41,896 nt of DNA from a virus (lineage: Duplodnaviria > Heunggongvirae > Uroviricota > Caudoviricetes), in the IMG/VR virus record IMGVR_UViG_2512047041_000010; one strand, written 5' to 3'. Position 1 is the stretch's first letter; each line of letters opens with the position of its first letter. Positions 10,347 through 30,364 of the stretch are shown here, one piece after another. The translations under genes were made by a program, and so were the position numbers. The notes beneath the pieces are model-generated. The model was not told the DNA's origin and did no database searches. It saw nothing but the letters and a program-made list of their open reading frames with translations.

Positions 10347-10369
10347 AAACAAGGCCGCGAAAGCGGCCT

Positions 10370-10381
10370 GTGACATGTCAC
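10370..10381. repeat. perfect 12-bp palindrome GTGACATGTCAC (copy 1 of 3)
   Basis: Identical 12-mer also at 28088..28099 and 30353..30364; overlaps the stop codon of the minus-strand lipoprotein gene and abuts a GC hairpin. Confidence 0.8.
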
Positions 10382-10758
10382 GCAACGCAATTATTACCGC
10401 GCCATGTAACATTTTTAATAATCTTATCAGCACCAAACTCAACGTAAACAGAGCAACTGAAATGGAGTGTATAACCGCCATCAGTTGTTGCGTATGTGTT
10501 TGAATATATAGTATTACCAATTAGATTAGACGTAGTATTATACGTTGTGGTTTGTGGTACGTTATAACTACCAGAGCTTGAGTAAACATACACTCTGTTT
10601 CCATCTGGAGATGTAAGCTCTCCCTGAGGATACCCCCACTGCTGAACCATTGCGTCTATACTCTGCCCGCGCCACGTAAGCATATTTCTTTCAAACTGTG
10701 CAGCTGACTGGCATCCAACGAGAAGCATAAATCCAAAAATCAAAAATACTTTTCTCAT
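10378..10758 (-). CDS. phage lipoprotein (possible superinfection-exclusion/entry-exclusion type)
   Basis: Start taken at MRKVFLIFGFMLLVGCQ (lipobox LVGC) with SD AGGGGT; Thr/Ser/Tyr-rich mature part; sits between virion genes and the moron island. Confidence 0.6.
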   Translation of the reverse strand: MRKVFLIFGFMLLVGCQSAAQFERNMLTWRGQSIDAMVQQWGYPQGELTSPDGNRVYVYSSSGSYNVPQTTTYNTTSNLIGNTIYSNTYATTDGGYTLHFSCSVYVEFGADKIIKNVTWRGNNCVA

Positions 10759-10977
10759 AATTACCCCTATCATGGAAAAACAGCACCAATCCACAAATTA
10801 ACTAGTTATTTTATTATTCTTCCGAACAATACAATTCCGAATACTACAAAGCCGAACCATGCCGCTGCACGCAACAGAGATTCCAATTGAAACCCATTTT
10901 TATCAAAATGTATGAATAGCATAAAAACGCTGCACATATTAGTACAATAAAAGTTATTTGAACCATCATATCTCCTT

Positions 10978-13452
10978 TTATTGCGGAGTGACATCCTGTG
11001 GTCGCCACCAGTATGTCTGGTTAAACTCTTTCTTCGAACGTTGCTCCATTTTACGCAAATAGCCTGGTGAAAAATACTCCTGCATCTGGTTAAAGATCAT
11101 GTGATCGAGAGCCGCCTTCAAGTACCAGAGATTCGCACCAGGCATCAAACCTTTCCCCAGCTTCACCAGATCACCACCAGTCTGCTCACTCTTCCCTTCC
11201 ACAGCATTTAACGGTATGCCCTGAGCAATCTTCACTACGTCATCAACCAGACCAGCTACCGGGCCAAGCATCGACGCCAGCGCGCCGCTTCCGTACCTAG
11301 TGTGATCTGACAATAAAAAGTCACCGTAAAGGCCAAGACCACCACCTTTCAGTAGAGCACCAAGCCAGAATTTTGCGGCATCTTCTCCTGTCATCTCTCG
11401 AGGATTACGACCAGACGCAAGGTCGTTAAGTTGCTGCGACAAAGCGCCAAGAATGGTCGTACTGGCAATAAACGTCGCAATATATGCCGCACGCCCACCA
11501 GCAGACGGCATACCCATAGCGCGTGACCAGTGACGCATAACAACCGAGATAGGGAACGATTTAAACAGGAAAACACTTCTCGTTAATTCACCTTTCCATG
11601 TTCCACGCTGAATACCAGAACCGGTTATCAGTTGCTCACGTGCTCCCGGTGTAATAACAGCCATATCAACTTCTTCAGTTACGGCACCGAGCAGTTTACG
11701 CATTGCCTCAAATTTCACGCGTTCAGGCTCACCAAGATGTTTAACTGCTGAATCAGGGATACGCATAATGCTTTCCGGTGTCAGCATCGTATTATTACCG
11801 TTCCCCCAGTCCTCCTGTTTCGCCAGCTTCCATACGCTCCAGTCTGTGTCAGTAATCCCTTTGCTTTTCAGGATACGAAAATCAGAGTCATCGAGGCTAC
11901 GAAGGTCTGGTGTCCGTGACACTACTTCTCCCAGGCTTCCCATCATGGTTACGCCATAGGCGCGCTTGTGCGCATCTGACCATGCTGTAAGCCCACTGGC
12001 ACGCATTACCGCCGTTGCCGCCCAACGAGACACTGACGGCCCCATATTATCCATCGCCCAGCGGTTAACGCTGCCAAGTAGAGATTCCATCGCCAGACCA
12101 GCGCGGCGCGCCCGCGCAAGTTCTGTACGGTTCGTTGGGTCCATAGCTTCAAGCTGGTTGCGGAATAACTGGTTCACTGGAAGGTTGGTAACCTTCGCAG
12201 ACAGATACATGGTTCCAAGATCAGAGAACGATGACAGCAACGCGGATCCGAGTCTGCTGGCAACCAGCCAGTTGCGGATATTGTCAGACCATCGCGCGAT
12301 GTGCGGATTCGCTACAGGCTGTGTCTTTCCGGAAATAAAGTTGTACAGATTCTCTGTGTTGTTCGCCAGCCGCTCGACTTTACCGGTTTTACTCGGGTTA
12401 GCTGTTGCCGTTTCTGCCTTCACCTGATCAAGAAGAGAGCGGAAAACATGATCGGGGTTTGGGCCATATGTTTCCACCAGTGCAATATCTTTACTGATAC
12501 CTTCCAGGTGACCGACCATGATTTCCCATAGAGAGCGATCGCCATAAAGTTGCTGATATTGCAGATAGGAATCTGCATCTTTGAAATGTATCTGTCGTGA
12601 TGCATTACCACGGTTAGCACGTGCGCCGGAAATTCGCATTCCGGTATCAGTAAGCTTATTCAGCCCACCAGTAGCGATCGTGTTATAAGCCTCTCCAAGA
12701 AATGAAGACAACTCGGCATCGTTCATCAGTTGTCCATCGGCTCGGATATAATATTTGCGATCCAGCCTACCTATAACATCGCTAACCCACTTATCCTTTG
12801 ATACTGCCCCAACCTTTTCCATAGAATGATGTTGAGGGATCCCCCAGTTTTCGAGATAGCCAATGTCCCCACCAGCATCATTAAACCGGCGGCGCAGCAG
12901 CTCTGTAACTTCTCTCCACGCCTTAGCACCGTTTCTTGCTTTAGCATTGCCAGTAGTTTGCCCCCGCATTTCATATACCAGGTCACGTACGCCCGCTTCA
13001 TCTTCAAACAGACCAAAAAAGCGAGGATCAACTGCTTCGAATGCCTCCTGCAATTGACTCAATGCATAATCACGGGTGGCTTTTGTTCTGGATTCAACAG
13101 AGAGGAAATTAGATTTACCGTCTGCATTAAAAGCTATAGTACGGTTAAGAGCGCCAAGTTTCCCATCAGCCCCTTGATAGCTATTGATAAATTTATCCAA
13201 TCTCTGACGCGCGGCTATAGTGAGAGCCACACGACGTTTCTTTAATGCCGCTTCTCGCTGTAATTCTTCAGATGCCAATTGTGCTGCTCGATATAGCCGC
13301 TCTGATTCGGAAAGTTGTCGCCACGACATAGGGTCATCACGAGCAATGGAGCGCATATTTCGATAAATGCGGTCTTCAATGTTCTGTATTTCTCGCGCCG
13401 TTAACATGCGCTGCGCCGCCTGCTGAACCGCTTGTATACATTCCTGTCTCAT
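10978..13452 (-). CDS. internal virion/ejection protein (T7 gp16-like position, distal part)
   Basis: 824-aa ORF last in the run of large virion genes; assignment by position in a gp13-gp14-gp15-gp16-like series. Confidence 0.5.
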   Translation of the reverse strand: MRQECIQAVQQAAQRMLTAREIQNIEDRIYRNMRSIARDDPMSWRQLSESERLYRAAQLASEELQREAALKKRRVALTIAARQRLDKFINSYQGADGKLGALNRTIAFNADGKSNFLSVESRTKATRDYALSQLQEAFEAVDPRFFGLFEDEAGVRDLVYEMRGQTTGNAKARNGAKAWREVTELLRRRFNDAGGDIGYLENWGIPQHHSMEKVGAVSKDKWVSDVIGRLDRKYYIRADGQLMNDAELSSFLGEAYNTIATGGLNKLTDTGMRISGARANRGNASRQIHFKDADSYLQYQQLYGDRSLWEIMVGHLEGISKDIALVETYGPNPDHVFRSLLDQVKAETATANPSKTGKVERLANNTENLYNFISGKTQPVANPHIARWSDNIRNWLVASRLGSALLSSFSDLGTMYLSAKVTNLPVNQLFRNQLEAMDPTNRTELARARRAGLAMESLLGSVNRWAMDNMGPSVSRWAATAVMRASGLTAWSDAHKRAYGVTMMGSLGEVVSRTPDLRSLDDSDFRILKSKGITDTDWSVWKLAKQEDWGNGNNTMLTPESIMRIPDSAVKHLGEPERVKFEAMRKLLGAVTEEVDMAVITPGAREQLITGSGIQRGTWKGELTRSVFLFKSFPISVVMRHWSRAMGMPSAGGRAAYIATFIASTTILGALSQQLNDLASGRNPREMTGEDAAKFWLGALLKGGGLGLYGDFLLSDHTRYGSGALASMLGPVAGLVDDVVKIAQGIPLNAVEGKSEQTGGDLVKLGKGLMPGANLWYLKAALDHMIFNQMQEYFSPGYLRKMEQRSKKEFNQTYWWRPQDVTPQ

Positions 13453-13457
13453 TTAAT

Positions 13458-15260
13458 TTAACCTCTCAAGAAACACGCCACAGCGACATCAAACAGGCTG
13501 GAATCCTGTATTGCCTGCTCACTTTCCCTGTTCGCTTCATCCAGTGCTTCACGCGCACTGCGCGATTGTGGATTACCATCATCATCCAGCACGGTGATTA
13601 TCATGTCAGGTGATTCAAGCAGCGAGTCTTCAGCTATGCGCAAATCAATATCTCCTGCCTGATCTGACATCATTTTTTGTTCTGCCTGTTGCAATATTTT
13701 ATCAGGCTCAAAAGGAGCTACTTCGTCTGGCGTCCTGACCTCTGCTGTTTTATAGAATGAAACAGCCTGAGCATTAAGTTCACTTTCTGCCTGCTGTCTC
13801 CGAGCCAGTTCTGCTCGAGCTTCAAAAAACTGACCGCCAGGCTCATGCGGTGCCAACGCGTTACGAGAAAATTCCAGGCGTTCTTGTGCCTGCCGGATTC
13901 GTTGGTCAATATCGCGAAGTCTGGCCTGTTTATCTGATCGAGCACGAGATAAAGCCTTACCGCTACCGGCTGGATCTTCTGCAAGAATTTGTGCGCGCTG
14001 TTCAGTGAGATTTTCAATAATTCGTTGGCTATTAGCGATTTCAGACTGGTAAACCTGTCTATCGCCACGCGGCAAAAGCTGCGCGGCCTGTTCTTCAAGC
14101 AACCGATTTTCTATAGCGCGCGCCGTTACTCCATCATCTACAGATGACAGAGCCTCATTAACTGCCTGAGACAGCAGACTCTTGCGTCCAGGAATTTCAC
14201 TGAAAGATGCAGACTCAACAATGCTGGCAACGTCTACAGGTCTCCCCTGGCTAACATCAGACATGGCTTTTCGCAGAGCCTGAATGTGCGAATTACGCGA
14301 AAGCACGTTGATCGGCACGCCGGGAGCAATATCAATTTCAGCATGATGAGCGGCATTCGCCGCCAGTGCAGCATCGATATCAACTGGTGAAAAATTTGGT
14401 GCGCTTGTAGACTCGCCGCGAGAGTTAATAAATCTGCCGACACCACCAAACGCCACCCCAAGAACAGCATCAATAGCAATTGCCTGTCGATCCAACACAT
14501 CATACTGGTTAGCCATTTCGCTATAGCCACCATCACGAAGCGTTTTTGCAGTAAGCCCACGCTGTGCCATACCGAACGCAATATTTGTACCTGCGGCATA
14601 GGCAATATCTGGCGTTGCACGTACTGCTGTTGCTGCGGCGCGTCGCACTGAACTTTCACCCGTCCGCGCAAGCTGAGCCGCCACACCTTCCGCCAGCGCA
14701 CCACCAGCACGTAACCCGAGGCTCATAGGGATCAGTGTTCCGGCACCAGCAGTAATACCCTGCACTAATCCCGCTTCCTGCGCCGTCCTGAAATCAACAC
14801 CCTGTGCTGTAAGCCGTTCAAACTCAGAAAAACCCTGTAGAGAAGTTACCGCCGCAGCACCTCCGACCGGACCACCGAGCGTTGTACCGACAACAGCCTG
14901 CCCGCCCATATCGAACAACCCATAAAGGACCTGCCCGGCGGTTCCGGTTGTCGCGGCATCAGGCGTCAGCCGCTTAACCTGCTGCTCTGCTAGTTTTCTC
15001 TGCTCAGCAATGTATGAAACTGAAGTGTCATTGATCGAGGTGTTTTCGTTAACAAACTGAGCAATCGGGGATACGATTTTATCCATCCCTGCCCATAGCA
15101 ACTGATCTGGCTTTGCCACCAGCCCGGAGTACAAACCAGACAATGCCGCTCCTACAGCATTGTCGAAAAAACCAACATCGCTGTTAAAGCCAGATGGATT
15201 TGATGCTGCTTCGTCAAGCTGCTGATTCTGGTTTACTGGATTAAGGCCAAAGTAACTCAT
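13458..15260 (-). CDS. internal virion/ejection protein
   Basis: 600-aa ORF, Ala/Gly-rich with predicted membrane-interacting segments; tightly packed between two other large virion genes. Confidence 0.5.
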   Translation of the reverse strand: MSYFGLNPVNQNQQLDEAASNPSGFNSDVGFFDNAVGAALSGLYSGLVAKPDQLLWAGMDKIVSPIAQFVNENTSINDTSVSYIAEQRKLAEQQVKRLTPDAATTGTAGQVLYGLFDMGGQAVVGTTLGGPVGGAAAVTSLQGFSEFERLTAQGVDFRTAQEAGLVQGITAGAGTLIPMSLGLRAGGALAEGVAAQLARTGESSVRRAAATAVRATPDIAYAAGTNIAFGMAQRGLTAKTLRDGGYSEMANQYDVLDRQAIAIDAVLGVAFGGVGRFINSRGESTSAPNFSPVDIDAALAANAAHHAEIDIAPGVPINVLSRNSHIQALRKAMSDVSQGRPVDVASIVESASFSEIPGRKSLLSQAVNEALSSVDDGVTARAIENRLLEEQAAQLLPRGDRQVYQSEIANSQRIIENLTEQRAQILAEDPAGSGKALSRARSDKQARLRDIDQRIRQAQERLEFSRNALAPHEPGGQFFEARAELARRQQAESELNAQAVSFYKTAEVRTPDEVAPFEPDKILQQAEQKMMSDQAGDIDLRIAEDSLLESPDMIITVLDDDGNPQSRSAREALDEANRESEQAIQDSSLFDVAVACFLRG

Positions 15261-17770
15261 TGCGGAATATCTCCGGAGAATCTCTGACGCTTCTGTGTCA
15301 GATTAAGAACAACGGGAGAACCATCATCTTTCAGCAGATAACCAGTACCAAGTTTCACCAGGTACTGACTATCGCCGTAACTTTGCAAACCATACTGACC
15401 AGGCGGTGTTTTTATCCCGGAGCCGACAACTTGTTCATTCCAAGCCTGATTAACCTGCTTATCGAATTGCTCTGCAGACATTCCCCACGGCAAAAGGACA
15501 TTCCCCATTCCGTTATAGTCATGCACGCCACCTGTAGCTACGTTAACAGCCTGTTTCCAGACATCATTGTCAATTTCGCCTGATACCACGCCTTTTTTCG
15601 CCATCACACCAGCGTAATAATCCTTTGCGATCTCGTATGCCATTGATGCGCCCTGAGCGTCACCAGCAAATGCATCCTTCACCATGTCAGAAAACTCAAG
15701 GCGAAGATCAGCATCTTTAGGCATCGGAATACCTTTCGCATCATCAGTACCTTTACGAGCCGCCGCGCCAGCAAGAATTGTCTGCGCAGCGGTTTCAGGA
15801 GACACGGAAACATCCGGATTAAACCAGTTTTTTTCTGCCAAAATACCACCAGGCTTATCCATCAGTATCCCGGCAACGGCAGCAGATGGAGCGTTGGCAC
15901 TGATCTGCTGTAGTGCTGACATATACACCTGCCCACCACCAGTGCTCTGCCTGATGGTATCGAGATATGCTGCCTGTTGGGAAACTGGAGCATCACGAAA
16001 GAAAACACCGATCTGATTGGCCTCGTCTTTGGAAAAGAACGTCAGTGGAGTGCCATATGACTTAGCAAGGTCACTGACCTGAGCGGCACGCAAGGCAACG
16101 CTCTGTCCAAAGTTATCCTTATTGCTCATGTCGATAGGCTTTGCCTGTCCGGAGGCAAGAGAGAACTGCACAGGATCCGACTGCCGCTGCTTTATCACCT
16201 GATTTGCAGCCGAAACAACGTTGTCATAAAGAGTTGCGCGTGCCGCATACCCCTCCCCTGTATCACCAGTATCCGGGCGTAATTGCTCAACATATGCTGT
16301 AATGCTGCTTGTCGGCATGTTGCGGAAAGAGCCTATATACTGTCCGGCGATCTGCGTATTCTTAAACTCGGTATATCGCAGGTTTCCTTCTCTGACTCCA
16401 TAAGCTGCAATAAAATCATCTTCACCAGGTGGGTTAGGAAATTCAATGCCACGCATATACGCAGCTGTCGCATCGCGAACCTGGCTGTCAATCATCGTTT
16501 TATATTCAGCCTGCTGCTGCCGACGCAGTTGATCCGCCTGTCGCATAAAACTTGCCTGCGCCTCAGGAGATGCCGCATCGAATGCTGCATTACCGGTATA
16601 GCGTTTGGTGTTGGTTGGAATTGTTGATAAACCAAGTGCTGCACTGACACCAGCAGTTAACTGCTGATCACTGTATGGCTGGCTACCGTTCTCATGATGG
16701 ATAATGGCTGCACAAAGCGCCTTCAGGGTATCAGGATTAGATGCATCGAGAGGCTCATCAGCAGAAACGCCAAGTTGTTCGCACACTGCTTTGATATACG
16801 ACATAGTGTCATTTTTATCAGTAGGCGGTGCCCAGCGATTAATTATCTCGCTGACGGTATCAATACCCTGCCTCTGATACGACATCAGGTTCCGCCCTAA
16901 TGCACGAATCCCGTGTTCAGGTGTTTCGAATTTAGCAAATCGACCATCATCACCGGTCTGGCCTACCCACGGATTAGTTTTGCTGTATTCGAGATTTCCT
17001 GGGTTATTGTTGCGTATGCCACGGGCACGCTCGGAAGAGTCACTATCTGCTACAGCACGGCGAGCTCCAGCAGCAGTATCGCTTAACTCGCCATTACTTT
17101 GGATAAATGAGATCGCATTGTTTGCCGACCACTGGGACAATGCAGCATCAGCAACCTTCTCTTTAAACTCGATTTTCTTGGCCTGGATTTGCTCGTCGCT
17201 CCAGCCATGCGCAATGCCGTAATCCTCAATTTGCTGGAAAGTTTGCTTATTAGCCAATACGTATGCGGCGTTGTCGCCATACAATGCTGCGGCATTTTTA
17301 CCATTGTTCAGCAGCGTAGCCTGAAACTGGCCTTCTTCGTAGGCATTTATTTGCCCTATCTCGTGCCGCCCGGCCTGCGTAGTGAACTGAATACGCTGCT
17401 GCTGCGACTGCTGCATGAAAGCATTACGAGCCTGTTCATCTGGCAGCGACATAGCCAGTTGTTCGACCTGAGCATCAAACTGCTGCGTATACTCCTGGCC
17501 TTTTCCAATAGCATTTTTCCCTTTCAGGTTAAGCAAACCTGTTTCAGGGTTATTCAGCAGATCGCTGCTTATCTGGCTTAAGCTAAGAGAAGCATCCTGA
17601 GCCATAGCAACATTCGCACGCTGTTTTGCCTGCGCAATAATACCTGCATATTGCTCTGCAACATCGCCAAGTACATCACCGACATTTGGTGTCTGAAACG
17701 ATGAGAATCCCTGCGTCGAAATCCCTCTGCTCTGAACCTGACGGCCCGATGTTGTTGGTACAACTGGCAT
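15257..17770 (-). CDS. internal virion core protein (T7 gp15-like position)
   Basis: 837-aa ORF directly downstream of the gp14-like gene; translationally coupled with neighbours. Confidence 0.5.
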   Translation of the reverse strand: MPVVPTTSGRQVQSRGISTQGFSSFQTPNVGDVLGDVAEQYAGIIAQAKQRANVAMAQDASLSLSQISSDLLNNPETGLLNLKGKNAIGKGQEYTQQFDAQVEQLAMSLPDEQARNAFMQQSQQQRIQFTTQAGRHEIGQINAYEEGQFQATLLNNGKNAAALYGDNAAYVLANKQTFQQIEDYGIAHGWSDEQIQAKKIEFKEKVADAALSQWSANNAISFIQSNGELSDTAAGARRAVADSDSSERARGIRNNNPGNLEYSKTNPWVGQTGDDGRFAKFETPEHGIRALGRNLMSYQRQGIDTVSEIINRWAPPTDKNDTMSYIKAVCEQLGVSADEPLDASNPDTLKALCAAIIHHENGSQPYSDQQLTAGVSAALGLSTIPTNTKRYTGNAAFDAASPEAQASFMRQADQLRRQQQAEYKTMIDSQVRDATAAYMRGIEFPNPPGEDDFIAAYGVREGNLRYTEFKNTQIAGQYIGSFRNMPTSSITAYVEQLRPDTGDTGEGYAARATLYDNVVSAANQVIKQRQSDPVQFSLASGQAKPIDMSNKDNFGQSVALRAAQVSDLAKSYGTPLTFFSKDEANQIGVFFRDAPVSQQAAYLDTIRQSTGGGQVYMSALQQISANAPSAAVAGILMDKPGGILAEKNWFNPDVSVSPETAAQTILAGAAARKGTDDAKGIPMPKDADLRLEFSDMVKDAFAGDAQGASMAYEIAKDYYAGVMAKKGVVSGEIDNDVWKQAVNVATGGVHDYNGMGNVLLPWGMSAEQFDKQVNQAWNEQVVGSGIKTPPGQYGLQSYGDSQYLVKLGTGYLLKDDGSPVVLNLTQKRQRFSGDIPQ

Positions 17771-17782
17771 CTTATTATCCCC

Positions 17783-18786: not shown

Positions 18787-21257
18787 CAGAATCCCCCAAC
18801 AGTAAGGCGAGGAATAACGGCAAGAACAGACAGCGGCAACGGATCAAGCTGACGGATTTTTACACGTCCGTTTTTGCCCCAGTTACTGTCCAGTTTCACT
18901 TCTACTTTTCCGGTAGCATCATCAACAGGATCATCGTAGAACTCGAATTCACGCTGTGGATATTCGTACCATTTACCGCCGGGCGTAGTCGCCCAGATGC
19001 CGCGACTGGCATTCACAACCAGAGTAACGGAGGGGATCACCTGTTTTTTGTCCAGCAGCGTTTCCTGTCCGTTAATGTTGATATCCAGTGTTTCGAATTC
19101 AGCAGTTATTGGCAGGCCGATGTGCACTACAGCCCCCGGAGATTCCAGCGTGACGGCACCTCCGGAAACCACTTTCTGTGGTTCCACGTTCGCATCAGAG
19201 AGAATGTTTACGGTCTGGCCTTCAAGATGAGACAGGCCTCCAAATGTCCGGCGCGCCATCTGCCAGTTCGTGGTGGCCACATTCCTAAGGGATGGCGGGA
19301 CGTTCCTGTTAGCACGAACCACTACAGCGGTATTGCTGGTTACAGAAATAATGTCGCAACGTAATTCTTTTGACACCTCATCGCCAGTATCAGGATCAGT
19401 TCCGGTATAAGGGAACTGTAGTTGCGCGCCGACATCACTACTGGTGAAGTACGCACCACCAGAAACACTGATTGTATATTCCGCGCGGTAATCCCATTCG
19501 CCAGAACCACCAGTGATGGTCATCGTTCTGTCAGACGTATTTCTTCCATCATAGCTAAGGCCAGAATCAACAAAGAAAGCATCTTCATCGCTGGTAAATA
19601 AACGGCTGGACAGTCGCTCGATGTATCTCACTGTTTGCCCGTTAACGGTTCGGTTAATGACGAAATACACCGCATCTTCATTGCCTTCGCTGATACTGCA
19701 TGTGCTTTCATATTTTCCGGTACTGGACTGTGGTGCCCATGCAAAAACCTGTTGATCACGCAAATAGGTCATCACCAGTAATTTACCGTCATCACGAATG
19801 CAGAAGGCGCTGGAGTAAGGGACTATCGAGAAGCACCAGTCAACAATGCTGTGCTTCTGAAAAAGATGATTGGCAAGGATGGTCAGGTCGTTCCCCTGAT
19901 AGCCGTCAACATCGAATGAGTAGGCCAGATCACGGACAACGCTGCCTTTCTCCTGGACGAACAGAGCAATATTCGCCACGGCAATTGGCGGGACGTTGCT
20001 TGAGCCATTTGATCCCTGAGAGCTGAATGCAAATGATGATGGGGTTAACACTTTGTTCTGGTCGCCGGTGATGACGTACTCACCTCCGGAAGTCAGCGCC
20101 ACCAGAGAACCAACATCAATCAGGTGGCGGATCTCATTAACCTGACGTCCGGCATAGGTGTAGATAATTCTGTCGTCATCCTGCGTAGGATTGCTTTTGC
20201 CAAAATCCTTATAATCCCCGGTACGGCTGGCCCAGATAGTCTGAGGAAACGCAGTCGATGCGGCGAAGTAAAGACGTTGTTGATAATAAACAACAGTGCC
20301 AGGATAACCATTAACACTGTTCCAGGCATATTTAGCCCATTTATAGCTGGCATTATCCTCGCCCACGACCTGCGAAGGGATATAGGAAATCACCTCGGCA
20401 GTTGCAGTAGTTCCATTTGCAGCAGTGATACGGGCAATGCCAAAACCACTGTGCAGATATTCCCACTCAATGCCAGTATCATCATCACCGGATCCGCCCC
20501 AGCCATCCCATGATGTGCCTTCTGTATGCGAAGGGCGCAAAGTACCTGTTTTGCCTGCTGTAACGGCGCGATAGTAGTTACTGTCTGCACGGCGAATATC
20601 GCCAATCGACGTACTCTTACTGGTTTCCCATACCGGCACAGAATCCACTGCAGGCTGTTCCAGATAGAACAATTTTCCTACCTGCTCCGCGCCAAAAATA
20701 GAGGCGCTTGCCGTTAGCGTAATTGTCCCGGTGCTGGCGCTGGCATAAACCGTCACTGACTCGTCAATATTGATATCTTCAAATGGCCCGTTCTTCGTTA
20801 CCACATCAACCAGTTGCCAGTTGTCATGCGCATAGCGGCGCAACTCTTTCGGCGGGTATGCCGGATGAACCAGCGTAAGCACGTCTGCGCTTTGCGTGAA
20901 TTTAATTCGGAACAGATCGGTTTCAGTATATGGCGTGGAAATTTCATAAATAACATTGCTGCTGTTCAGCACCAACGCACCATCTTTGATAACGCGCATG
21001 TACTGGTGTCCGAACTCCAGAGCATAAGTCTGAACCGTCGAGAACTGGAACGGGATCAGGCGGCATTTCCGATTTGGGTATTTGGCGGCACCGACAAAAC
21101 GCGTACCAGGTCGATTCTCAACTCCGCCATACTGCCGCACGATAAAGTTATCGCACTTGCGCAATGCCACCTGGTACTTCGCCATGTCGATACGACCGTA
21201 CAACGACGGTCCAATCTCACCACCGGCAAAGCTGGGCTGGATCCAACTGATAGCCAT
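18786..21257 (-). CDS. tail tubular protein B / nozzle (T7 gp12-like)
   Basis: 823-aa ORF after the gp11-like adaptor gene; size and order match a podovirus tail tube. Confidence 0.55.
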   Translation of the reverse strand: MAISWIQPSFAGGEIGPSLYGRIDMAKYQVALRKCDNFIVRQYGGVENRPGTRFVGAAKYPNRKCRLIPFQFSTVQTYALEFGHQYMRVIKDGALVLNSSNVIYEISTPYTETDLFRIKFTQSADVLTLVHPAYPPKELRRYAHDNWQLVDVVTKNGPFEDINIDESVTVYASASTGTITLTASASIFGAEQVGKLFYLEQPAVDSVPVWETSKSTSIGDIRRADSNYYRAVTAGKTGTLRPSHTEGTSWDGWGGSGDDDTGIEWEYLHSGFGIARITAANGTTATAEVISYIPSQVVGEDNASYKWAKYAWNSVNGYPGTVVYYQQRLYFAASTAFPQTIWASRTGDYKDFGKSNPTQDDDRIIYTYAGRQVNEIRHLIDVGSLVALTSGGEYVITGDQNKVLTPSSFAFSSQGSNGSSNVPPIAVANIALFVQEKGSVVRDLAYSFDVDGYQGNDLTILANHLFQKHSIVDWCFSIVPYSSAFCIRDDGKLLVMTYLRDQQVFAWAPQSSTGKYESTCSISEGNEDAVYFVINRTVNGQTVRYIERLSSRLFTSDEDAFFVDSGLSYDGRNTSDRTMTITGGSGEWDYRAEYTISVSGGAYFTSSDVGAQLQFPYTGTDPDTGDEVSKELRCDIISVTSNTAVVVRANRNVPPSLRNVATTNWQMARRTFGGLSHLEGQTVNILSDANVEPQKVVSGGAVTLESPGAVVHIGLPITAEFETLDININGQETLLDKKQVIPSVTLVVNASRGIWATTPGGKWYEYPQREFEFYDDPVDDATGKVEVKLDSNWGKNGRVKIRQLDPLPLSVLAVIPRLTVGGF

Positions 21258-22191: not shown

Positions 22192-22235
22192 TCCTGCAAT
22201 AAAGGGGCCGAAGCCCCTTGTCGGATTCGCGAGGC

Positions 22236-22580: not shown

Positions 22581-22581
22581 C

Positions 22582-23019
22582 TTAACCAGTTACTTTTGAG
22601 CGGATCGGATACGGCGTATTGGCATCAACATCAAGACTGATACCAGCAGTGAATTCGCCAGCCGTAAGTGGGCCAGTTGCGACGGAGTAGTTAACACGCA
22701 GATATCGCTGAACACCGGCAGGCACCTTTGCAGAAACAACTCGTTTACCTGCTGTCAGGGCGGTCTTTGCCAGTGCGCCACTATCATAAATAGTGGTCCA
22801 TGAGCTGTTATTCTCACTCGTCTGCAACTGGATGTTTACAGTTGCATCACCGCTTGCTGCGGCGGCTGCGTTAACCAGCGCCCAAAACTCAAGCGGGTAA
22901 CCCACGCCGATATCACGACGTTTTCCGTCAATTGGACCGAGATCGATTACGTCAGTAGAAGCCGCGGTATTCGTAACCGCCTGAGCTTCGGAGAACATCA
23001 ACAGTTTGTCGGTGATCAT
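22582..23019 (-). CDS. putative capsid decoration/minor capsid protein
   Basis: 145-aa ORF directly downstream of the major capsid gene; beta-rich composition. Confidence 0.4.
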   Translation of the reverse strand: MITDKLLMFSEAQAVTNTAASTDVIDLGPIDGKRRDIGVGYPLEFWALVNAAAAASGDATVNIQLQTSENNSSWTTIYDSGALAKTALTAGKRVVSAKVPAGVQRYLRVNYSVATGPLTAGEFTAGISLDVDANTPYPIRSKVTG

Positions 23020-23070
23020 CTTCTTTCTCCATTAGTGGGTCTGTTACGACCCACAGGTTAATAACAGGCG

Positions 23071-24063: not shown

Positions 24064-24071
24064 TTCCTCTC

Positions 24072-24767
24072 TTATTTGCCATAGAGCACTTCGGCCGCAC
24101 TACGCTGGCCTTCATTACCACCGGTGACCATGCCATCTTCAGACATCGCCTTTCCGATTTTCACGAACGTTTTGACCAGATCAGGGTGATTACCCAGCCC
24201 GGTGGTGTTCAGATATTCTTTGAGTTCAGGTGTCCCGAACTTGTCAAGCGCACGCTGTGCGGCGCTAAGGTTAGAAATCAACTTGTCGCCACCGATTTCT
24301 TTGTCAGCTTTTACATCAGCAGCCCACTGCTCGGTTGTTTTCTGCCAGGCTTCTGCCTGGCGCTGCTGCACACCTGCCAGAATCTTCGGATAAGCATCAA
24401 CCAGCTTTTGCGCTTGCTCGTTGGTCAGGTTTAGTTCTCGCGCCACCGGCTCGAATTCCTTCAACGCTTCTGTATCCAGCTCTACGCCTTCGGCAGCCTG
24501 AAACTCGTACTTCTCAGGCGCACCCTCTGGTTTATCGCCGCCCTTTTTTTCATCCTGCTTATCGTTTTCAGGCTTTTTGTCATCAGCAGGTTTATCGCCA
24601 TCAGCAACAGGTTGTGGCTTATCACCTTCCTGTTGTGATGGATCACCAACTGGAGAAGGGTTATCACCTGCATGCGCTGACGGTTCTGACGCAGCCGGAG
24701 CTGCCCCACCATCGACTTGTTGCTCATTGCAAAGACGGCGATACAGCAAACGCTCAAATAAACTCAT
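24072..24767 (-). CDS. putative scaffolding protein
   Basis: Acidic, Pro/Lys/Asp-rich low-complexity N-terminal half and helical C-terminal half; SD AGGAG before the ATG at 24767. Confidence 0.5.
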   Translation of the reverse strand: MSLFERLLYRRLCNEQQVDGGAAPAASEPSAHAGDNPSPVGDPSQQEGDKPQPVADGDKPADDKKPENDKQDEKKGGDKPEGAPEKYEFQAAEGVELDTEALKEFEPVARELNLTNEQAQKLVDAYPKILAGVQQRQAEAWQKTTEQWAADVKADKEIGGDKLISNLSAAQRALDKFGTPELKEYLNTTGLGNHPDLVKTFVKIGKAMSEDGMVTGGNEGQRSAAEVLYGK

Positions 24768-24769
24768 GA

Positions 24770-25066
24770 TCACTCCTGTTCACTGGCCTCTTTGGCCATC
24801 TTCAAATACTGTTCAGGGCAATGCGCCATAACGCGCTGAAACAGTTCCAGCGCCAGATTGCGTTGCCCCTCATTAAATGCCATTGCCATAGCATCCATCG
24901 GAGAGATAGCGGAAAACACCCGGCCTTTCTCCAGCACCGACCAGACAACGCGACGCCCCTGTTCACTGCTCATGACAAAGCGAATGTCATCAATTTCACG
25001 CTGCGCCATGTCACGTTGCTTACGGGCGTTTTCTTCTTTCAGTTGATCGTCTTCGTAATCTGTCAT
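24770..25066 (-). CDS. hypothetical head-assembly protein
   Basis: 98-aa ORF between portal and scaffold genes. Confidence 0.4.
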   Translation of the reverse strand: MTDYEDDQLKEENARKQRDMAQREIDDIRFVMSSEQGRRVVWSVLEKGRVFSAISPMDAMAMAFNEGQRNLALELFQRVMAHCPEQYLKMAKEASEQE

Positions 25067-26742
25067 TGTGATTGCCCACCCTGACCACTAACTGCATTCG
25101 CCATAGCTGACAACACACTCGGATCCGAAGTTTTAGCTTCGCTTAGCGTCTTGGCCCCCTGTGCCGCCGCCATCCCCATCGCCATCATTTGTTGCTGCTG
25201 TTGTTGCTGTGCCCGTTGCTGGCGAGCCTGCTCAACCTGTTCCTGCGGAACAATGACGGTTGGAGACACTCCGGACATATCAGCGAATGCATCGATCGCC
25301 TGATCAACGTTGAGTTTGTCGAGAGCTTCTGGTTTCGCTTGCGCAAGTTGACCAATGAAGTTGACCGTAGACGCCAGACTGGACAGGCCGATAGACTTCT
25401 GCGCCTGAGCCATGACGGAAATGTATTCGACCTTCAGGGGCATACCTTCCATCGCGTCAGGCGGTGGCGGCAGCATGTTTTTACGCACCATCATCGAGAA
25501 AGAGCGGTCAATGAGAGGATTAAGACATTCGTCGTTCAGACGCTCCAGAACCGGCCCCAACATCAGAAGTTTTTCTTCTTTCATTTCGATCACCGCTTCA
25601 ACAGGCATCGAGCGGGTATTGATGTTCTGCAACATCATGAACAGATCGACAAAGTAGGCGCTGTTAATGATTTGACGAGTGTCCTGAATGTCTGCCACCA
25701 AATCTGCTGTACTGGGGTTAACCAGATAAGCAGGCCTGAAACCATCCTGACCAGTAATCTGATCGATATACGTGATGTCGCCAGGAAGAAGGGAGGCACG
25801 CTGATTCTTGAGGGAAGTCGGAGCAACCATCGGCGGATTGGTGGCTTTATCAATCAACTGCGACTTGCGCTTCTGGAGAAGCTGCAATGCCTTAACAGGT
25901 CCAAGCGCCAGCATACCCGGGCATGATGATCCATAAACATCTTCGCCGTTAACTTCCCAGCGCGGAGCCATAATTGGAAACTCATCGAATCCGGACTCAC
26001 GCAACAACTTGTCGTTATCGCCACCAACCTCGTAATAAACCGATTTGAATGGCTTGTTCTTGCTATCCAGCTTCGATGTATCGCGGTCAATGTTCGGGTA
26101 AACCGAATGCATCACTTCAATCCACTTCTCGTAGGTTCCGCTTTCCCACATGCTTTTTACGGATTCGCTGACGTTATTTAGCCCGAACTCCTGAACAAGC
26201 TGACGAACAGTCATAGAGAACTTGCGAAAACAGGTGTCCACACTGCCACGAGGTGAGTTAGCCAGGTAGTAACTGCCTATCGGGAATGGCATTGTGCGAA
26301 TGATGTCCTCGTCATCCTCCAGCACTGCCATTGCACCAGTGCTGTATGTGCCGAGGCTTCCGTATAACTGCGGCAGCGACTGATAGAGATTCGACTTATT
26401 GAACATATCGTTCATGCGGTTCTGCACCGCCTCAAGCCACAACTTAACAGGGCCATAGTCCATCATTTCAGGATCTGGCGTAGCCAGGCGAAACCACGGA
26501 CGGGCGGGGCTTGTTATGCCTGACATCATGCCGCTGGCAAGAGTGCGCGCCGCCATAGTCCCGGTCGAATCAATAATGCGTGTATTGCGTCGATCGTTAC
26601 GGTTAACCTCAGAAGTCAGAAAGCGGGAACCACGCGGGTTGATGTAATCACTCAACTCGCGCCAGTGCGGCTCGAACGACTGACGCTCGCTTTCAAGTTG
26701 TGCGAACTGTTTGTTCAATCGCTCTTTAGTTGTTTCCGCCAT
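25063..26742 (-). CDS. portal (head-to-tail connector) protein
   Basis: 559-aa ORF with Gln/Ala-rich C-terminal tail; first large structural gene; recognised as podovirus-type connector. Confidence 0.7.
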   Translation of the reverse strand: MAETTKERLNKQFAQLESERQSFEPHWRELSDYINPRGSRFLTSEVNRNDRRNTRIIDSTGTMAARTLASGMMSGITSPARPWFRLATPDPEMMDYGPVKLWLEAVQNRMNDMFNKSNLYQSLPQLYGSLGTYSTGAMAVLEDDEDIIRTMPFPIGSYYLANSPRGSVDTCFRKFSMTVRQLVQEFGLNNVSESVKSMWESGTYEKWIEVMHSVYPNIDRDTSKLDSKNKPFKSVYYEVGGDNDKLLRESGFDEFPIMAPRWEVNGEDVYGSSCPGMLALGPVKALQLLQKRKSQLIDKATNPPMVAPTSLKNQRASLLPGDITYIDQITGQDGFRPAYLVNPSTADLVADIQDTRQIINSAYFVDLFMMLQNINTRSMPVEAVIEMKEEKLLMLGPVLERLNDECLNPLIDRSFSMMVRKNMLPPPPDAMEGMPLKVEYISVMAQAQKSIGLSSLASTVNFIGQLAQAKPEALDKLNVDQAIDAFADMSGVSPTVIVPQEQVEQARQQRAQQQQQQQMMAMGMAAAQGAKTLSEAKTSDPSVLSAMANAVSGQGGQSQ

Positions 26743-26756
26743 TTCAATGACTCCGG

Positions 26757-26963
26757 TTACTGACCAAGCAGCGTTTTACCGCTGGTATTAGCGGTTGATG
26801 TGTCGCCCTGAGAACCGGTAAGCAGCGTAGAACTACGACCAGCAGCAGCGCGACGGCGACGAGTTTCTTCGTCGCGGGCATCAACAACGGCGGCATCCTG
26901 CTCCTGTGGTGCTGCCTGAACTTCTGGTGTTGCAGGCACTGATGGTGAGCTACCCATGCACAT
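26757..26963 (-). CDS. hypothetical small protein
   Basis: 68-aa ORF with SD GGAGT just upstream of the portal gene. Confidence 0.35.
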   Translation of the reverse strand: MCMGSSPSVPATPEVQAAPQEQDAAVVDARDEETRRRRAAAGRSSTLLTGSQGDTSTANTSGKTLLGQ

Positions 26964-27031
26964 ATCAATGACTCCGTACGCAATTAAATTATTACCAATT
27001 TAACCACATATGATTTATTTATCGTAGATAG

Positions 27032-27069
27032 TTGACATTTAACGCACAAATTATTACCTTTCAGGTAAC
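27032..27069 (+). promoter_or_regulatory. putative promoter (-35 TTGACA) with overlapping operator ATTACCTTTCAGGTAAC
   Basis: Consensus -35 hexamer at 27032..27037; the operator (27053..27069) covers the -10/+1 region; oriented toward the tRNA. Confidence 0.5.
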
Positions 27070-27390
27070 CAAAGAGTTCATTCCGGTTACTAACCTGACT
27101 GGCTTGTCGTTAAATTGAACAGGTGGAGTGAGCTTTTATTTTGAGCAGTACGGCGTATGGCACATGCGCCGATAGCGGTCTGGATACGTTTAAGGGGCAC
27201 CCTCCCTTGCTCGGGCAAACGAACCAGGTAGCCGGAATGTGCAAGTCGAGCGGTTTTATTCCGCGCACGGGGATTCACCATCCCGGCGATTCGGTGTGAC
27301 GCCTCGGAAGAGACGAGGGTACAACGATGAGAGCATTTATGGAGCCGCGACAAAGTGTGGCGCCTTAACAGGCTAAGTGCTCTCAGCGTT

Positions 27391-27467
27391 GTGGCATTAG
27401 CTCAGTTGGACAGAGCAACCGCCTTCTAAGCGGTTGGTCGCAGGTTCGAATCCTGCATGCCACGCCA
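27391..27467 (+). tRNA. tRNA-Arg (anticodon UCU)
   Basis: 77-nt cloverleaf: acceptor GTGGCAT/ATGCCAC, anticodon stem ACCGC/GCGGT with loop CTTCTAA, T-arm GCAGG-TTCGAAT-CCTGC, encoded CCA end. Confidence 0.9.
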
Positions 27468-27510
27468 GAATCACGCCTAAGGACCGTGATGCCAGAAGTT
27501 CCAGGGGATT

Positions 27511-27551
27511 GGCGGTGATTTTCCATTGAAGGACTATCACCGCCCTTTTTA
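27511..27551 (+). terminator. rho-independent terminator after the tRNA
   Basis: GGCGGTGAT ... ATCACCGCC stem followed by CTTTTT. Confidence 0.6.
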
Positions 27552-27628
27552 CAGCAGGACGCCATTGCGATGACTTCATGCTGTAAACCAGTACAGCCAC
27601 GGAAGGCATAACTCATTGCTTCCAGTTC

Positions 27629-27652
27629 GCCCGGGTCGCCGGGCATTTTTTT
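27629..27652 (+). terminator. GC hairpin plus U-run immediately upstream of the 27664 start (terminator/attenuator)
   Basis: GCCCGG-gtcg-CCGGGC followed by ATTTTTTT, ending 12 nt before the ATG and adjacent to the SD AAGGTGAG. Confidence 0.5.
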
Positions 27653-27663
27653 AAGGTGAGATC

Positions 27664-28083
27664 ATGAAAACAATTGATATGTTGGCTAAGTATCTAAATG
27701 AATGGCCATTAAAATATTCTCGTATCGTTCAGGCTGAAGACTGCGTTTTTTATGGCGTTTTTGCTGGTAATGAAATGCATTACGAAGTAATTCAGAGTGA
27801 GGGACTGGCCGGGTTAACTCTTAGCGAAGACCATGGTACTAGCGTTACGTTCCATGACTGGATAACAGCACAACGTTATGAAATGGAAAAAGGCGATGTG
27901 TTTGATATTTCTCGATCTGTTTACGCTAAAGCAAAAAGTGATAATGATTACATGAGCGAACACTTATACAACATGAAGTTACAATGCCTGCATGCGGCGC
28001 TTATTCAGAATGGGTACTTCGATAAAACAAGTGCCATCAATATTGCGGAAGCCATCAACGCTGGATTTAATGCCATTAAGTAA
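27664..28083 (+). CDS. hypothetical protein, 139 aa (AT-rich moron, no recognisable domain)
   Basis: SD AAGGTGAG; AT-rich codon usage unlike flanking genes; opposite strand to the late operon. Confidence 0.6.
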   Translation: MKTIDMLAKYLNEWPLKYSRIVQAEDCVFYGVFAGNEMHYEVIQSEGLAGLTLSEDHGTSVTFHDWITAQRYEMEKGDVFDISRSVYAKAKSDNDYMSEHLYNMKLQCLHAALIQNGYFDKTSAINIAEAINAGFNAIK

Positions 28084-28087
28084 CACC

Positions 28088-28099
28088 GTGACATGTCAC
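28088..28099. repeat. perfect 12-bp palindrome GTGACATGTCAC (copy 2 of 3)
   Basis: Five nt after the stop of the 27664..28083 gene, immediately before a terminator hairpin. Confidence 0.8.
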
Positions 28100-28130
28100 A
28101 AACAGCCAGCCGATGAGCTGGCTTTGTTTT
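28100..28130 (+). terminator. rho-independent terminator
   Basis: AGCCAGC-cgatga-GCTGGCT followed by TTGTTTT. Confidence 0.65.
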
Positions 28131-28173
28131 ATCCTCATCAGAGGATATCAACGACATTATCCCCACCAGCGGA

Positions 28174-29649
28174 TTAAGCATAGGGATCGTAATCTGTGAT
28201 GGCCTTGCCTTGCTGGTTCTGCTGCCCGGGAATTCGCAGACGCTTCGACACAGGGAACGCAAACGTCAGCAGTAGCGCATCGCCTTTACCCGGCGAACGC
28301 CCAAGCCGCTCCTTGATATCCTCCTTCGGTTCGATAACGATTTTACCGTCCACGCGAACTTTGTACTCTGCCGCCGACAGGTCGTCTGCAGTTTCCTGGT
28401 CATCCAGCATGCCGCCCAGCCTCAGCCATGTCTTACATGAGTTGAACATCTCCCCACGCTTGTTAAGCATCTGCGGGTCAGTAGACGCGCCACCGAACGG
28501 AACAAGTTGCCATGTACGACCCCAGCCGTCACCGATTGACTTCAAACCGGTTCCGTAACCGAAGTCGATGAACACCGCGTCAGCCTGATACTGGTCTTCA
28601 AAGTCAGCGATACGCTTCGCCATAATCAGATCGTCGGTAGTCTTGTTGCCAGTCCACAGCACCTTACTGTGTAGCCCCTGCCGCAGGTATATCACAGCGT
28701 CATCAACGCCGGAGTATGCCGGGTCAACGCCGATTATCACCGGAGCATGTGCAACCTGCGCAGCGGTTACCACCCGTTTCATTGCCTCGTCAGTAAGACC
28801 GGTAGGGATAAACTGCAATTCAGATGCATCAGGGAATATGCCACGCACACGGATTTTAACGAAGTCGCTGTCTTCCCCGTAGTCATCAACCCATTTCTGC
28901 AACTGCTGTTTGTTGGTACCTTCCACCGTCCGACTGTCAATCTGCGCAGTTTTCCAGCGGTGTTTATACTTGCGGAAACATTCACGGAAACGTCCGGTAT
29001 TACGCGTCGGGTTTCCGAACGCCACCCAGATAATCTCAGTGTCTTCGTCCGTAAGCGCACCCTCAGCAACTTCCCACACCAGATCCGCAATGTTCGACGC
29101 TTCATCGAATACCACGATGATGCGTTTGCGCTCGTTGTGTAGTCCGGCGAATGCCTCAGTGTTGTGCTCAGACCAGGGGATTGCGTCAGCTCGCCACCGC
29201 TTGTCGTGCCCAGGATCATTGCTGTACATCGCAGTAGCGGTACAGGTAAACCAGTCTTTCGTGATAGCAAGGTTCGACCACTTGATAATTTCCGGCCAGG
29301 TCTTCGTTCGTAGCTGGTTGTCGGTGTTGGCGGTCACCACGACCTTACAATCCTCGCAAGTGGACATGCCCCAGTTGATCAGCATTGAGATGAATGCGGA
29401 TTTACCAATACCGTGACCAGAAGCGCGTGCCAGCATAAGCGGCTGATAGCGCGTCTCTGGATTCTGCAGGTGATCACGTATCTCTCGGAACGCATCAGCC
29501 TGCCACTGACGTGGGCCAGTAGCATGTGCCAGTTCAGTCCCCTCTTCCCCCCACGGGAACGCATAGAGGGCATAACCAAGCGGATCGTGAGTAAACCCTG
29601 CAATATCCTCGATCAACTGCTCTTCAGGAGATAACACTGTATCTGTCAC
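28174..29649 (-). CDS. terminase large subunit
   Basis: 491-aa ORF with ATPase region (GHGIGKS Walker-A-like) and C-terminal nuclease-like region; start overlaps the small-subunit stop. Confidence 0.85.
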   Translation of the reverse strand: MTDTVLSPEEQLIEDIAGFTHDPLGYALYAFPWGEEGTELAHATGPRQWQADAFREIRDHLQNPETRYQPLMLARASGHGIGKSAFISMLINWGMSTCEDCKVVVTANTDNQLRTKTWPEIIKWSNLAITKDWFTCTATAMYSNDPGHDKRWRADAIPWSEHNTEAFAGLHNERKRIIVVFDEASNIADLVWEVAEGALTDEDTEIIWVAFGNPTRNTGRFRECFRKYKHRWKTAQIDSRTVEGTNKQQLQKWVDDYGEDSDFVKIRVRGIFPDASELQFIPTGLTDEAMKRVVTAAQVAHAPVIIGVDPAYSGVDDAVIYLRQGLHSKVLWTGNKTTDDLIMAKRIADFEDQYQADAVFIDFGYGTGLKSIGDGWGRTWQLVPFGGASTDPQMLNKRGEMFNSCKTWLRLGGMLDDQETADDLSAAEYKVRVDGKIVIEPKEDIKERLGRSPGKGDALLLTFAFPVSKRLRIPGQQNQQGKAITDYDPYA

Positions 29650-30242
29650 TGATTACCATCCTGACGTTCTTTGAGTCGCTTCCTGGCTGCTGCTATGCGA
29701 TCAGCAATTGTCACATTCACATTAACATCCAGGCGTTCTTTGAATGCGTTGACGTCGACGTGCTTACCAATCAGTTCGAGGTTCTTCACCTTGTCAGGCC
29801 ATTTAATTTTTTTGAGGATTGTCTCTATCGAATCCTCGTTCATGTTCATGATGGTCGATGACAGATCAAAGCCGCTAAGCGTAGTGCGCCAGATTTTCGG
29901 CCACTCGCGGATTGGCTTAAGGCTCCCATCGTCGTTGAGGATGTCGATCACGTCCATCTGGTCGATCTCCACCAGGCGCATGAGAACGTAATCAGCACTG
30001 ACGCGCATTCGTTTGTTGCGCTCCTCCATCAACTCGGCAATCCGTTTTTGAATGCGTTCATCGCGCATCATGACACTGGCTTTAACTGCCGCTGTATTTG
30101 GGGAGAATCCTGCGTTAATCGCTGCCTGAGTCTGGTTTTCAGGCGTTTTGATGTATGACTGGCAATAAGCCTCCTGCATTGCTGTTAGTGGCTTAAATTG
30201 CGTTGATTTGCGTTTATAGGTTTTAGGTTCAGCAGGCATCAT
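29646..30242 (-). CDS. terminase small subunit
   Basis: Start taken at MMPAEPKTYK with SD GGTGG; DNA-binding-like N-terminus; directly upstream of the large subunit. Confidence 0.65.
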   Translation of the reverse strand: MMPAEPKTYKRKSTQFKPLTAMQEAYCQSYIKTPENQTQAAINAGFSPNTAAVKASVMMRDERIQKRIAELMEERNKRMRVSADYVLMRLVEIDQMDVIDILNDDGSLKPIREWPKIWRTTLSGFDLSSTIMNMNEDSIETILKKIKWPDKVKNLELIGKHVDVNAFKERLDVNVNVTIADRIAAARKRLKERQDGNQ

Positions 30243-30249
30243 AACCACC

Positions 30250-30278
30250 GTGGTAATAGTTACCGTTGTGGTAATAGT
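30250..30278. repeat. direct repeat GTGGTAATAGT x2 in the terminase small-subunit leader
   Basis: Identical 11-mers at 30250..30260 and 30268..30278, between an upstream terminator and the start codon. Confidence 0.6.
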
Positions 30279-30280
30279 AC

Positions 30281-30311
30281 CATGCAAAATAAAGCCGCCA
30301 TAGTTGGCGGC
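30281..30311 (-). terminator. rho-independent terminator upstream of the terminase genes (tR'-like position)
   Basis: On the minus strand GCCGCCA-acta-TGGCGGC followed by TTTATTTTG. Confidence 0.55.
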
Positions 30312-30352
30312 AGTATTCAAAACCCATCAAATTCATCATGCATAATCTACTC

Positions 30353-30364
30353 GTGACATGTCAC
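30353..30364. repeat. perfect 12-bp palindrome GTGACATGTCAC (copy 3 of 3)
   Basis: Overlaps the stop codon of the Cys-rich gene, about 40 bp upstream of the terminator before the terminase genes. Confidence 0.8.

Follow-up and report, generated by a model that had tools for sequence, protein, structure and literature searches.

A 12-bp palindrome repeated at gene 3' ends of an epsilon15-type prophage is the probable operator of a small phage regulator

What role does a perfect 12-bp palindrome play in a prophage that carries it, unchanged, at the 3' ends of genes in three separate places? The question is raised by the 41,896-nt stretch of DNA in IMG/VR virus record IMGVR_UViG_2512047041_000010 (the window, by which the whole of this stretch is meant), a phiV10/epsilon15-type podovirus prophage of the genus Uetakevirus that shares 97-98% identity with several E. 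coli phages and ~76% with Salmonella phage epsilon15, and whose late genes lie on the minus strand. A first-pass annotation made from the letters of the window had pointed out the palindrome, GTGACATGTCAC, and had offered three explanations for it: a binding site for a phage or host protein, a recombination hotspot marking module joints, or a methylation target of the MT-A70 enzyme. Conservation, linkage, phylogenetic profile, predicted fold and covariation together indicate that GTGACATGTCAC, or GTGAC-NN-GTCAC in its general form, is most probably the operator (the cognate DNA site) of a 112-amino-acid protein encoded at 30361-30699 on the minus strand, hereafter called the regulator. That the regulator physically binds the sites is what we infer from these sequence comparisons.

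The window holds exactly three copies of GTGACATGTCAC, at 10370-10381 (site 1), 28088-28099 (site 2) and 30353-30364 (site 3), in agreement with the first-pass annotation. There is no copy with one mismatch in the window, and the sole copy with two mismatches, at 25003, falls within coding sequence. The earlier expectation that chance would supply far fewer than one copy was borne out, as 100 dinucleotide-preserving shuffles of the window contained no match at all. Among 300 first-order Markov resamples, 76 had some 12-mer at least three times, so an exact repeat alone is only moderately surprising. None of the resamples had a palindromic 12-mer repeated in this way, and GTGACATGTCAC is the only 12-bp palindrome present more than once in the window; a palindromic repeat is far beyond chance and highly surprising. 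On the plus strand the copies are flanked by T..G, C..A and C..A, respectively. Reverse-complementing T-site-G gives C-site-A, so every copy reads C-GTGACATGTCAC-A once the copies are oriented alike. The similar flanks described earlier hold in this sense, while the statement that a C precedes each copy is wrong for copy 1 as written. In the host, GTGACNNGTCAC is absent from the 100 kb of E. coli K-12 chromosome sampled (two stretches of 50 kb outside Ter), where ~7 copies would be expected at the phage density, which favours a real element.

All three copies stand at the ends of transcription units. Site 3 overlaps the TGA stop codon of the regulator gene (minus strand, 30361-30363), which is the last early-right gene, and is followed in the minus-strand direction by a terminator hairpin 41 nt downstream, a repressor-type palindrome and, ~110 nt from the site, terS. 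Site 2 occupies the gap where terL, ending at 28174, meets the end of a convergent cargo gene, with a hairpin 4 nt away. Site 1 closes the long structural (late) operon, where it overlaps the TGA stop codon (minus strand, 10378-10380) of an open reading frame (ORF) at 10378-10794 on the minus strand and abuts a terminator hairpin. The first-pass annotation was thus right that two copies overlap a TGA and that each copy lies within 45 bp of a GC-rich hairpin, the distances being 0, 4 and 41 nt. As an RNA hairpin, GTGACATGTCAC itself reaches only -1.2 kcal/mol, no better than shuffled sequences. The 12-mer was ruled out as an intrinsic terminator on this ground, the real terminator hairpins being separate neighbouring elements.

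Comparison with other members of the genus shows that the palindrome is maintained at these junctions. Epsilon15 and Tyrion carry GTGACATGTCAC at all three homologous positions (the third copy of Tyrion spans the ends of its record), phiV10 carries two exact copies and a third with one mismatch, GTGACATGTTAC, across the ends of its record, which was cut inside the copy, and TL-2011b carries two copies. The presence of the motif at homologous junctions in related phages again favours a real element. Around sites 1 and 2, identity between genomes drops to 29-61% in the 40-nt flanks. At site 2 the 12-mer is invariant in four genomes, with 40-nt flanks that are 39-61% identical and hairpin arms that differ; at site 1 it is invariant in five genomes, with just 29% identity in the upstream 40 nt. 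The hairpin stems have diverged but still pair. Twelve invariant bases amid drifting intergenic DNA indicate sequence-specific recognition. The Uetakevirus sites also mark the borders between conserved backbone and exchangeable cargo. A variant of the motif, GTGACATGGCAC, found in 42 Uetake loci was set aside as a coding coincidence; it lies inside a gene of the capsid region, and neither epsilon15 nor the window conserves it.

The pairing of regulator gene and site is also found in phages of other types. Pectobacterium myovirus ZF40 has three exact copies of GTGACATGTCAC, one of them 3 nt past the gene for a regulator homologue, and N15 has three copies of GTGACTGGTCAC, one of them on the TGA stop codon of its homologue. 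Likewise, Vibrio phage K233 has three copies of GTGAC(AC/GC)GTCAC, and the P2-like Yersinia phage YenM_42.18 has one copy of the site. Of all proteins encoded in the window, the regulator alone has BLASTP homologues in at least two of the other four site-bearing phage types, and it matches all four. When loci encoding a regulator homologue were scanned for GTGAC-NN-GTCAC, 127 sites were found in 80 Uetake-type loci (1.3 expected by chance), 105 in 49 N15-type loci (0.8 expected), 56 in 55 P2-like loci (0.9 expected) and 82 in 61 bacterial genome loci (1.1 expected), the last set comprising one genome per species in the collection, nearly all of them Enterobacterales. This amounts to a 60- to 170-fold enrichment in every homologue-bearing group examined, and the groups cover podo-, myo- and siphoviruses, N15-like, P2-like and Vibrio phages, and the prophages of the 61 bacterial genome loci. 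Control patterns in the homologue-bearing loci, with everted half-sites or with spacers of 1, 3 or 4 bp, gave 0-5 matches, and the 3-bp-spaced pattern of matS, a 13-bp site with consensus GTGACRNYGTCAC (PMC6907758), had no match in the regulator-bearing loci.

The position of the site relative to the gene is also retained. The site falls at the regulator stop codon in 75 of 80 close relatives and 0-36 nt from it in most of the 61 bacterial genome loci, and in many lineages the regulator gene is followed by the site, then, after 0-41 nt, by a terminator-like hairpin and finally by the next operon. The half-sites GTGAC are fixed, whereas the central dinucleotide varies among AT, TG, GC, AC and CC. 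In the reverse direction, at least 80 IMG/VR stretches contain TGTGACATGTCACA. Among the matches listed, which are partial contig pieces, 20 of 80 held the gene in the stored piece and 54 of 80 were related to regulator-bearing phage types.

The regulator belongs to PHROG 536 and is the counterpart of epsilon15 gp49, phiV10 gp55 and N15 gp46, in a family of ~210 clusters at 50% identity for which no Pfam family was found. A structure model was built from a 71-sequence alignment (28 close sequences gave an unusable model, with a predicted local distance difference test score, pLDDT, of 59). It predicts an N-terminal ribbon-helix-helix (RHH) domain followed by a C-terminal helix with a four-cysteine zinc finger. 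Cysteines C79 and C82 are invariant in the 71-member family alignment; C91 and C99 never vary in the closer 28-member set and hardly do so in the family at large. One of the three best structural matches of the model is MatP-matS, and a Foldseek search of the model against PDB and BFVD gave no useful match. Searching PDB with the family profile returned weak matches to YbiI and TraR (E 0.01-0.02) and no other solved homologue. Pairwise hhalign comparisons gave 73% for TraR, 64% for YbiI and only 4% for DksA, with the controls MatP, Arc, Ogr, rubredoxin, YacG and shuffled TraR at 0-11%. The C-terminal 60 residues align with TraR/YbiI as a helix plus a CxxCG..P...PG...C finger. A jackhmmer search from TraR on local ORFs recovered two ordinary TraR homologues and not the regulator family. 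The DksA/TraR family requires an acidic DxxDxA tip that reaches the polymerase active site (PMC9239242). The regulator has no counterpart to this tip; its aligned positions are R47-A48-P49, preceded by a folded N-terminal domain. No description was found of a protein in which an RHH domain is joined to a TraR/YbiI-like helix and zinc finger without the DxxDxA tip.

The predicted beta-strand of the protein and the centre of the site vary together. Family members with a predicted beta-strand of the class xKxExxxD accompany sites with AT at the centre, those with TRRDWxLEP accompany TG/CA, and those with INEIRARLEP accompany GC, as would be expected if the ribbon reads the middle of the operator.

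Across clades, the sites favour gene ends without being restricted to them. In 211 unique site contexts, 56% lie no more than 40 nt after a stop codon (7% for random positions) and 22% lie inside ORFs (78% for random positions); when contexts at the regulator's own stop codon are left out, the corresponding values are 34% and 33%. In P2-like phages the sites form an array in which a terminator-like hairpin is followed by GTGACATGGCAC, 21 nt, GTGACATGTCAC, 21 nt and GTGAC, that is, one imperfect site, one perfect site and one half-site at a period of 33 bp (locus L087, 11675-11780, and loci L140-L180), a phasing that would place these sites on one face of the duplex. The array has a conserved left flank and a variable right flank and precedes a variable membrane-protein gene next to the portal gene, inside the variable cargo region of these phages, a region that carries defence genes. 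In N15-like elements (N15 33237; loci L089-L137) a site inside repA is invariant while neighbouring bases drift. Vibrio phages and N15 also have sites 13-20 nt before start codons, and another N15 site was observed ~24 nt upstream of a promoter-like TTGACG-17-TAGAGT ahead of the anti-repressor operon. In ZF40-type phages (ZF40 5125 and 7622; loci L302, L304, L323 and L326) two sites, 2.1-2.5 kb apart and both in coding sequence, bracket the cI-cro-cII switch region. K233 additionally contains, at 19491-19503, one perfect 13-bp matS-consensus site, GTGACACCGTCAC, besides its three 12-bp sites; it overlaps the TGA stop codon of a small membrane-protein gene.

These observations present what would be expected of an operator, namely a short site with two-fold symmetry and a protein with which it co-occurs and co-varies. 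Of the explanations offered by the first-pass annotation, a binding site for a phage protein is thus strongly supported by the comparative evidence, with the regulator as the candidate protein. As to how the pair would work, the RHH domain would dimerise and read two inverted GTGAC half-sites exactly 2 bp apart. The three sites of the window would serve the 3' ends of three units: the early-right operon, with the regulator gene as its last member, terS-terL, and the structural operon. The regulator would be made late in the early operon and would then occupy these junctions, where the bound protein would decide whether RNA polymerase passes, serving as a roadblock or insulator where units converge or follow one another, and it would also feed back on its own operon. 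With sites at unit ends beside terminators and not in recognisable promoters, and with the gene last in the early operon, a DNA-bound barrier limiting read-through and convergent transcription at the junctions is the simplest reading; we advance it tentatively, as something that may well turn out otherwise. A more elaborate possibility, which we consider unlikely, is that the RHH domain tethers a TraR-like, RNA-polymerase-binding zinc finger to defined positions, such that an arriving polymerase would be captured or modified at GTGAC-N2-GTCAC. If so, this would constitute site-specific control of termination and read-through at operon and cargo junctions, distinct from control by Q, N, RfaH-type factors or Rho.

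Several points weigh against the operator interpretation and the barrier function. The 12-mer was not found in any paper of the searchable literature, nor was a description of the motif or the protein, including in work on epsilon15, phiV10 and SPC32H. The loci in which enrichment was measured were all selected because they encode a regulator homologue, and the reverse test is only partial, since 26 of 80 matches listed were unassigned and may be chance occurrences. The covariation between beta-strand and central dinucleotide rests on ~4 clades and hence on few independent events. For the barrier in particular, the positions of the sites differ by clade (N15 has one within repA, Vibrio phages and N15 have some 13-20 nt ahead of start codons, and P2-like phages have theirs upstream of a cargo promoter), and one mechanism may not fit all of them.

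Other explanations were considered for the same data. The regulator could be a Q-like late-gene switch that binds site 3 and starts transcription or antiterminates before terS, leaving sites 1 and 2 as decoys or secondary loading sites. The succession of regulator gene, site, terminator and terS parallels Q - PR' - tR' - late genes, and the C-terminal similarity to TraR and YbiI, well above the hhalign controls, hints at contact with RNA polymerase. The left half of site 3, GTGACA, could also serve as a -35 element, and a promoter-like GTGACA-18-CATGAT starts in the site; its 9/12 match to consensus is not above shuffle expectation. Epsilon15 and Tyrion have GTGACA-17-TAAATT at this point, and Citrobacter and Pseudocitrobacter relatives have TTGAC(G/T) 6-7 nt past the site. 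The start predicted for epsilon15 would, however, lie inside the terminator stem, site 2 is downstream of its hairpin on the late strand, and sites also occur in coding sequence (N15 repA, ZF40 cII). In Pfam the regulator matched none of the Q families. Moreover, N15 (Q) and P2-like phages have late regulators of their own and yet carry the regulator gene and sites; in P2-like phages we take this late regulator to be the 'transcriptional regulator' gene next to gpD, presumably Ogr-like by analogy with P2. Because each late operon has repressor-type operators ahead of it, a dedicated activator may be unneeded. On balance a Q-like role seems rather unlikely. Less probable still is that the regulator bridges distant copies in the way of MatP tetramers, which would enclose loops of 2.2 kb (terS-terL) and 17.7 kb (structural genes): the regulator has no sequence homology to MatP (hhalign probability 0.3%), its model contains no predicted coiled-coil tetramerisation domain, and most P2-like loci have a single local array.

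A host protein, either MatP or another enterobacterial factor, is a very improbable binder of the motif in place of the phage regulator. The motif does resemble matS, as does the SlmA site GTGAGTACTCAC resemble the motif, and the host orders of the site-bearing phages possess MatP. Against this, the spacer is always 2 bp and the 13-bp matS spacing was met zero times in ~4.4 Mb of regulator-bearing loci, the site is linked to a phage gene across very different phages, its centre co-varies with the phage protein, and the 100 kb of E. coli chromosome hold no copy. The suggestion of a recombination hotspot was correct in that the sites lie exactly at the border between backbone and variable cargo, and in P2-like and Uetake genomes homology between relatives ends within a few bases of the site, with variable cargo on one side. 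A hotspot is nevertheless insufficient alone, given the copies in coding sequence, the copy at the regulator stop codon in deeply diverged phages and the 33-bp-phased arrays. That the 12-mer is a mere linker for cargo swaps, with no regulatory role, we regard as highly unlikely: a passive sequence would hardly keep all 12 bases across ~76%-identical genomes, and such a linker would leave unexplained the fixed copy in N15 repA amid drifting bases, the 33-bp phasing and the clade-specific centre between fixed half-sites. Least plausible is that the motif acts as RNA, in the form of a small hairpin in the 3' untranslated region, or as a target of DNA methylation. On a transcript ending there, the motif precedes a hairpin and U-tract in all three cases, and the prophage encodes an adenine methyltransferase homologue. 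The hairpin formed by the motif is, however, no stronger than that of shuffles, its stem is invariant and shows no covariation, and it is the 'loop' that varies. The earlier proposal of an MT-A70 target is in turn not supported: the methyltransferase is not shared by the site-bearing phages and the variable centre offers no constant target base.

The elements that surround the sites in the window can be described as follows. Between site 3 and terS lies a terminator-like hairpin, GCCGCCAACTATGGCGGC, with a T-run at 30286-30311 on the minus strand (hairpin 30294-30311), which is kept in epsilon15 and Tyrion and is an annotated terminator in the epsilon15 record. At site 2, the hairpin AGCCAGCCGATGAGCTGGCT with its T-run occupies 28104-28131 on the plus strand (hairpin 28104-28123), the strand of the cargo gene, between the two convergent units; its stem sequence differs in epsilon15 and Tyrion with pairing retained. 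The cargo gene itself, at 27664-28083 on the plus strand, encodes 139 amino acids of PHROG 4846, of unknown function, and points its 3' end towards site 2. The late structural operon is closed by the minus-strand terminator hairpin AGGCCGCTTTCGCGGCCT with a T-run at 10344-10369 (hairpin 10352-10369), and the ORF whose stop codon lies inside site 1 (10378-10794) encodes a variable cargo protein of 138 amino acids (PHROG 3716).

The palindrome TTACC-N5-GGTAA at 30260-30274, between the terminator and terS, is a separate regulatory motif of the prophage-repressor type annotated in epsilon15. Ten copies of it are present in the window (7933, 8313, 9380, 27054, 30260, 33518, 33580, 35911, 36623 and 36685), some within the immunity region and others a short way upstream of terS, the portal operon and the tailspike gene. 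This placement upstream of late operons suggests that the prophage repressor acts directly on them. With the TTG start annotated in phiV10, the terS ORF (29646-30320, minus strand) extends through the terminator hairpin 30294-30311. Its Pfam Terminase_2 match sets in at residue 45, and the true terS start is therefore probably an ATG at ~30240-30243. A sigma-70 promoter downstream of the terS terminator was considered and dropped, because the sole candidate would start transcription at the ribosome-binding site. Elsewhere in the window, CCAAAAACGGGA occurs four times at 34827-34967, three of the copies at a 24-bp period, inside the ORF 34414-35229 (minus strand) in the replication-gene region, and these repeats look like origin iterons. 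The plus-strand ORFs of the left end (1-2500) depart from the phiV10 gene order and may represent host flank or different cargo beside the attachment site, and the integrase ORF (40646-41896) extends to the right-hand end of the window.

Many temperate phages of enteric bacteria and vibrios that are otherwise unrelated share this combination of gene and site, a sign that one layer of gene control in phages has gone unstudied. A motif and a protein family that both lack annotation are thereby connected. Little is understood of how epsilon15/phiV10-type phages control their genes, even though these phages are used as serotype converters, typing phages and O157 reporter phages, and we see a moderately high chance that the operator-regulator pair will open the way to a new kind of control at junctions in temperate phages. 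Control of polymerase passage at the borders of backbone and cargo, if exerted by this protein, would explain how acquired genes are insulated from phage operons, and a 12-bp site with a 112-amino-acid protein would make a portable part for engineering. Two points lend themselves to direct tests: the possible fusion of RHH and TraR modules, and half-sites nearly identical to those of matS.

Among known systems, matS/MatP shares with the phage pair inverted GTGAC...GTCAC half-sites, an RHH binder (predicted in the case of the phage protein) and a small number of dispersed copies that act as DNA. The phage site differs in being strictly 12 bp with a 2-bp spacer, in its three window copies together with 375 sites in related loci, and in its location in prophage and phage genomes instead of clustering in the host terminus, while the phage protein has a zinc finger in place of MatP's four-helix bundle and coiled coil. 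Membership in matS was rejected on spacer length, on location and on the lack of sequence homology to MatP. The RHH repressors Arc, Mnt, CopG and MetJ and the antitoxins MazE, ParD and FitA resemble the regulator in predicted fold, in a short operator with two-fold symmetry beside the regulator's own gene and in a beta-strand that probably reads the bases. Unlike theirs, the phage site lies at a gene 3' end on a stop codon and not at a promoter, with extra copies kilobases away at operon ends and inside genes, and the C-terminal zinc-finger module is not found in classical members.

TraR and YbiI are zinc-finger proteins of the DksA family that bind RNA polymerase's secondary channel, and it is to them that the C-terminal 60 residues of the regulator align, with weak scores, as a helix and C4 finger. 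The lambda Q module offers a parallel in layout, in that a regulator encoded last in the early-right operon is followed by a DNA site, a terminator and the packaging and late genes. It differs in that the regulator has no Q-family homology, its site recurs at other terminators and in genes, and a phage with its own Q (N15) also carries the regulator-site system. Finally, KorA and KorB of IncP plasmids are small regulators whose palindromic sites of 12-13 bp are scattered over a mobile genome and coordinate several operons; unlike the phage regulator, they have helix-turn-helix (HTH) and ParB folds, and their sites lie mostly at promoters.

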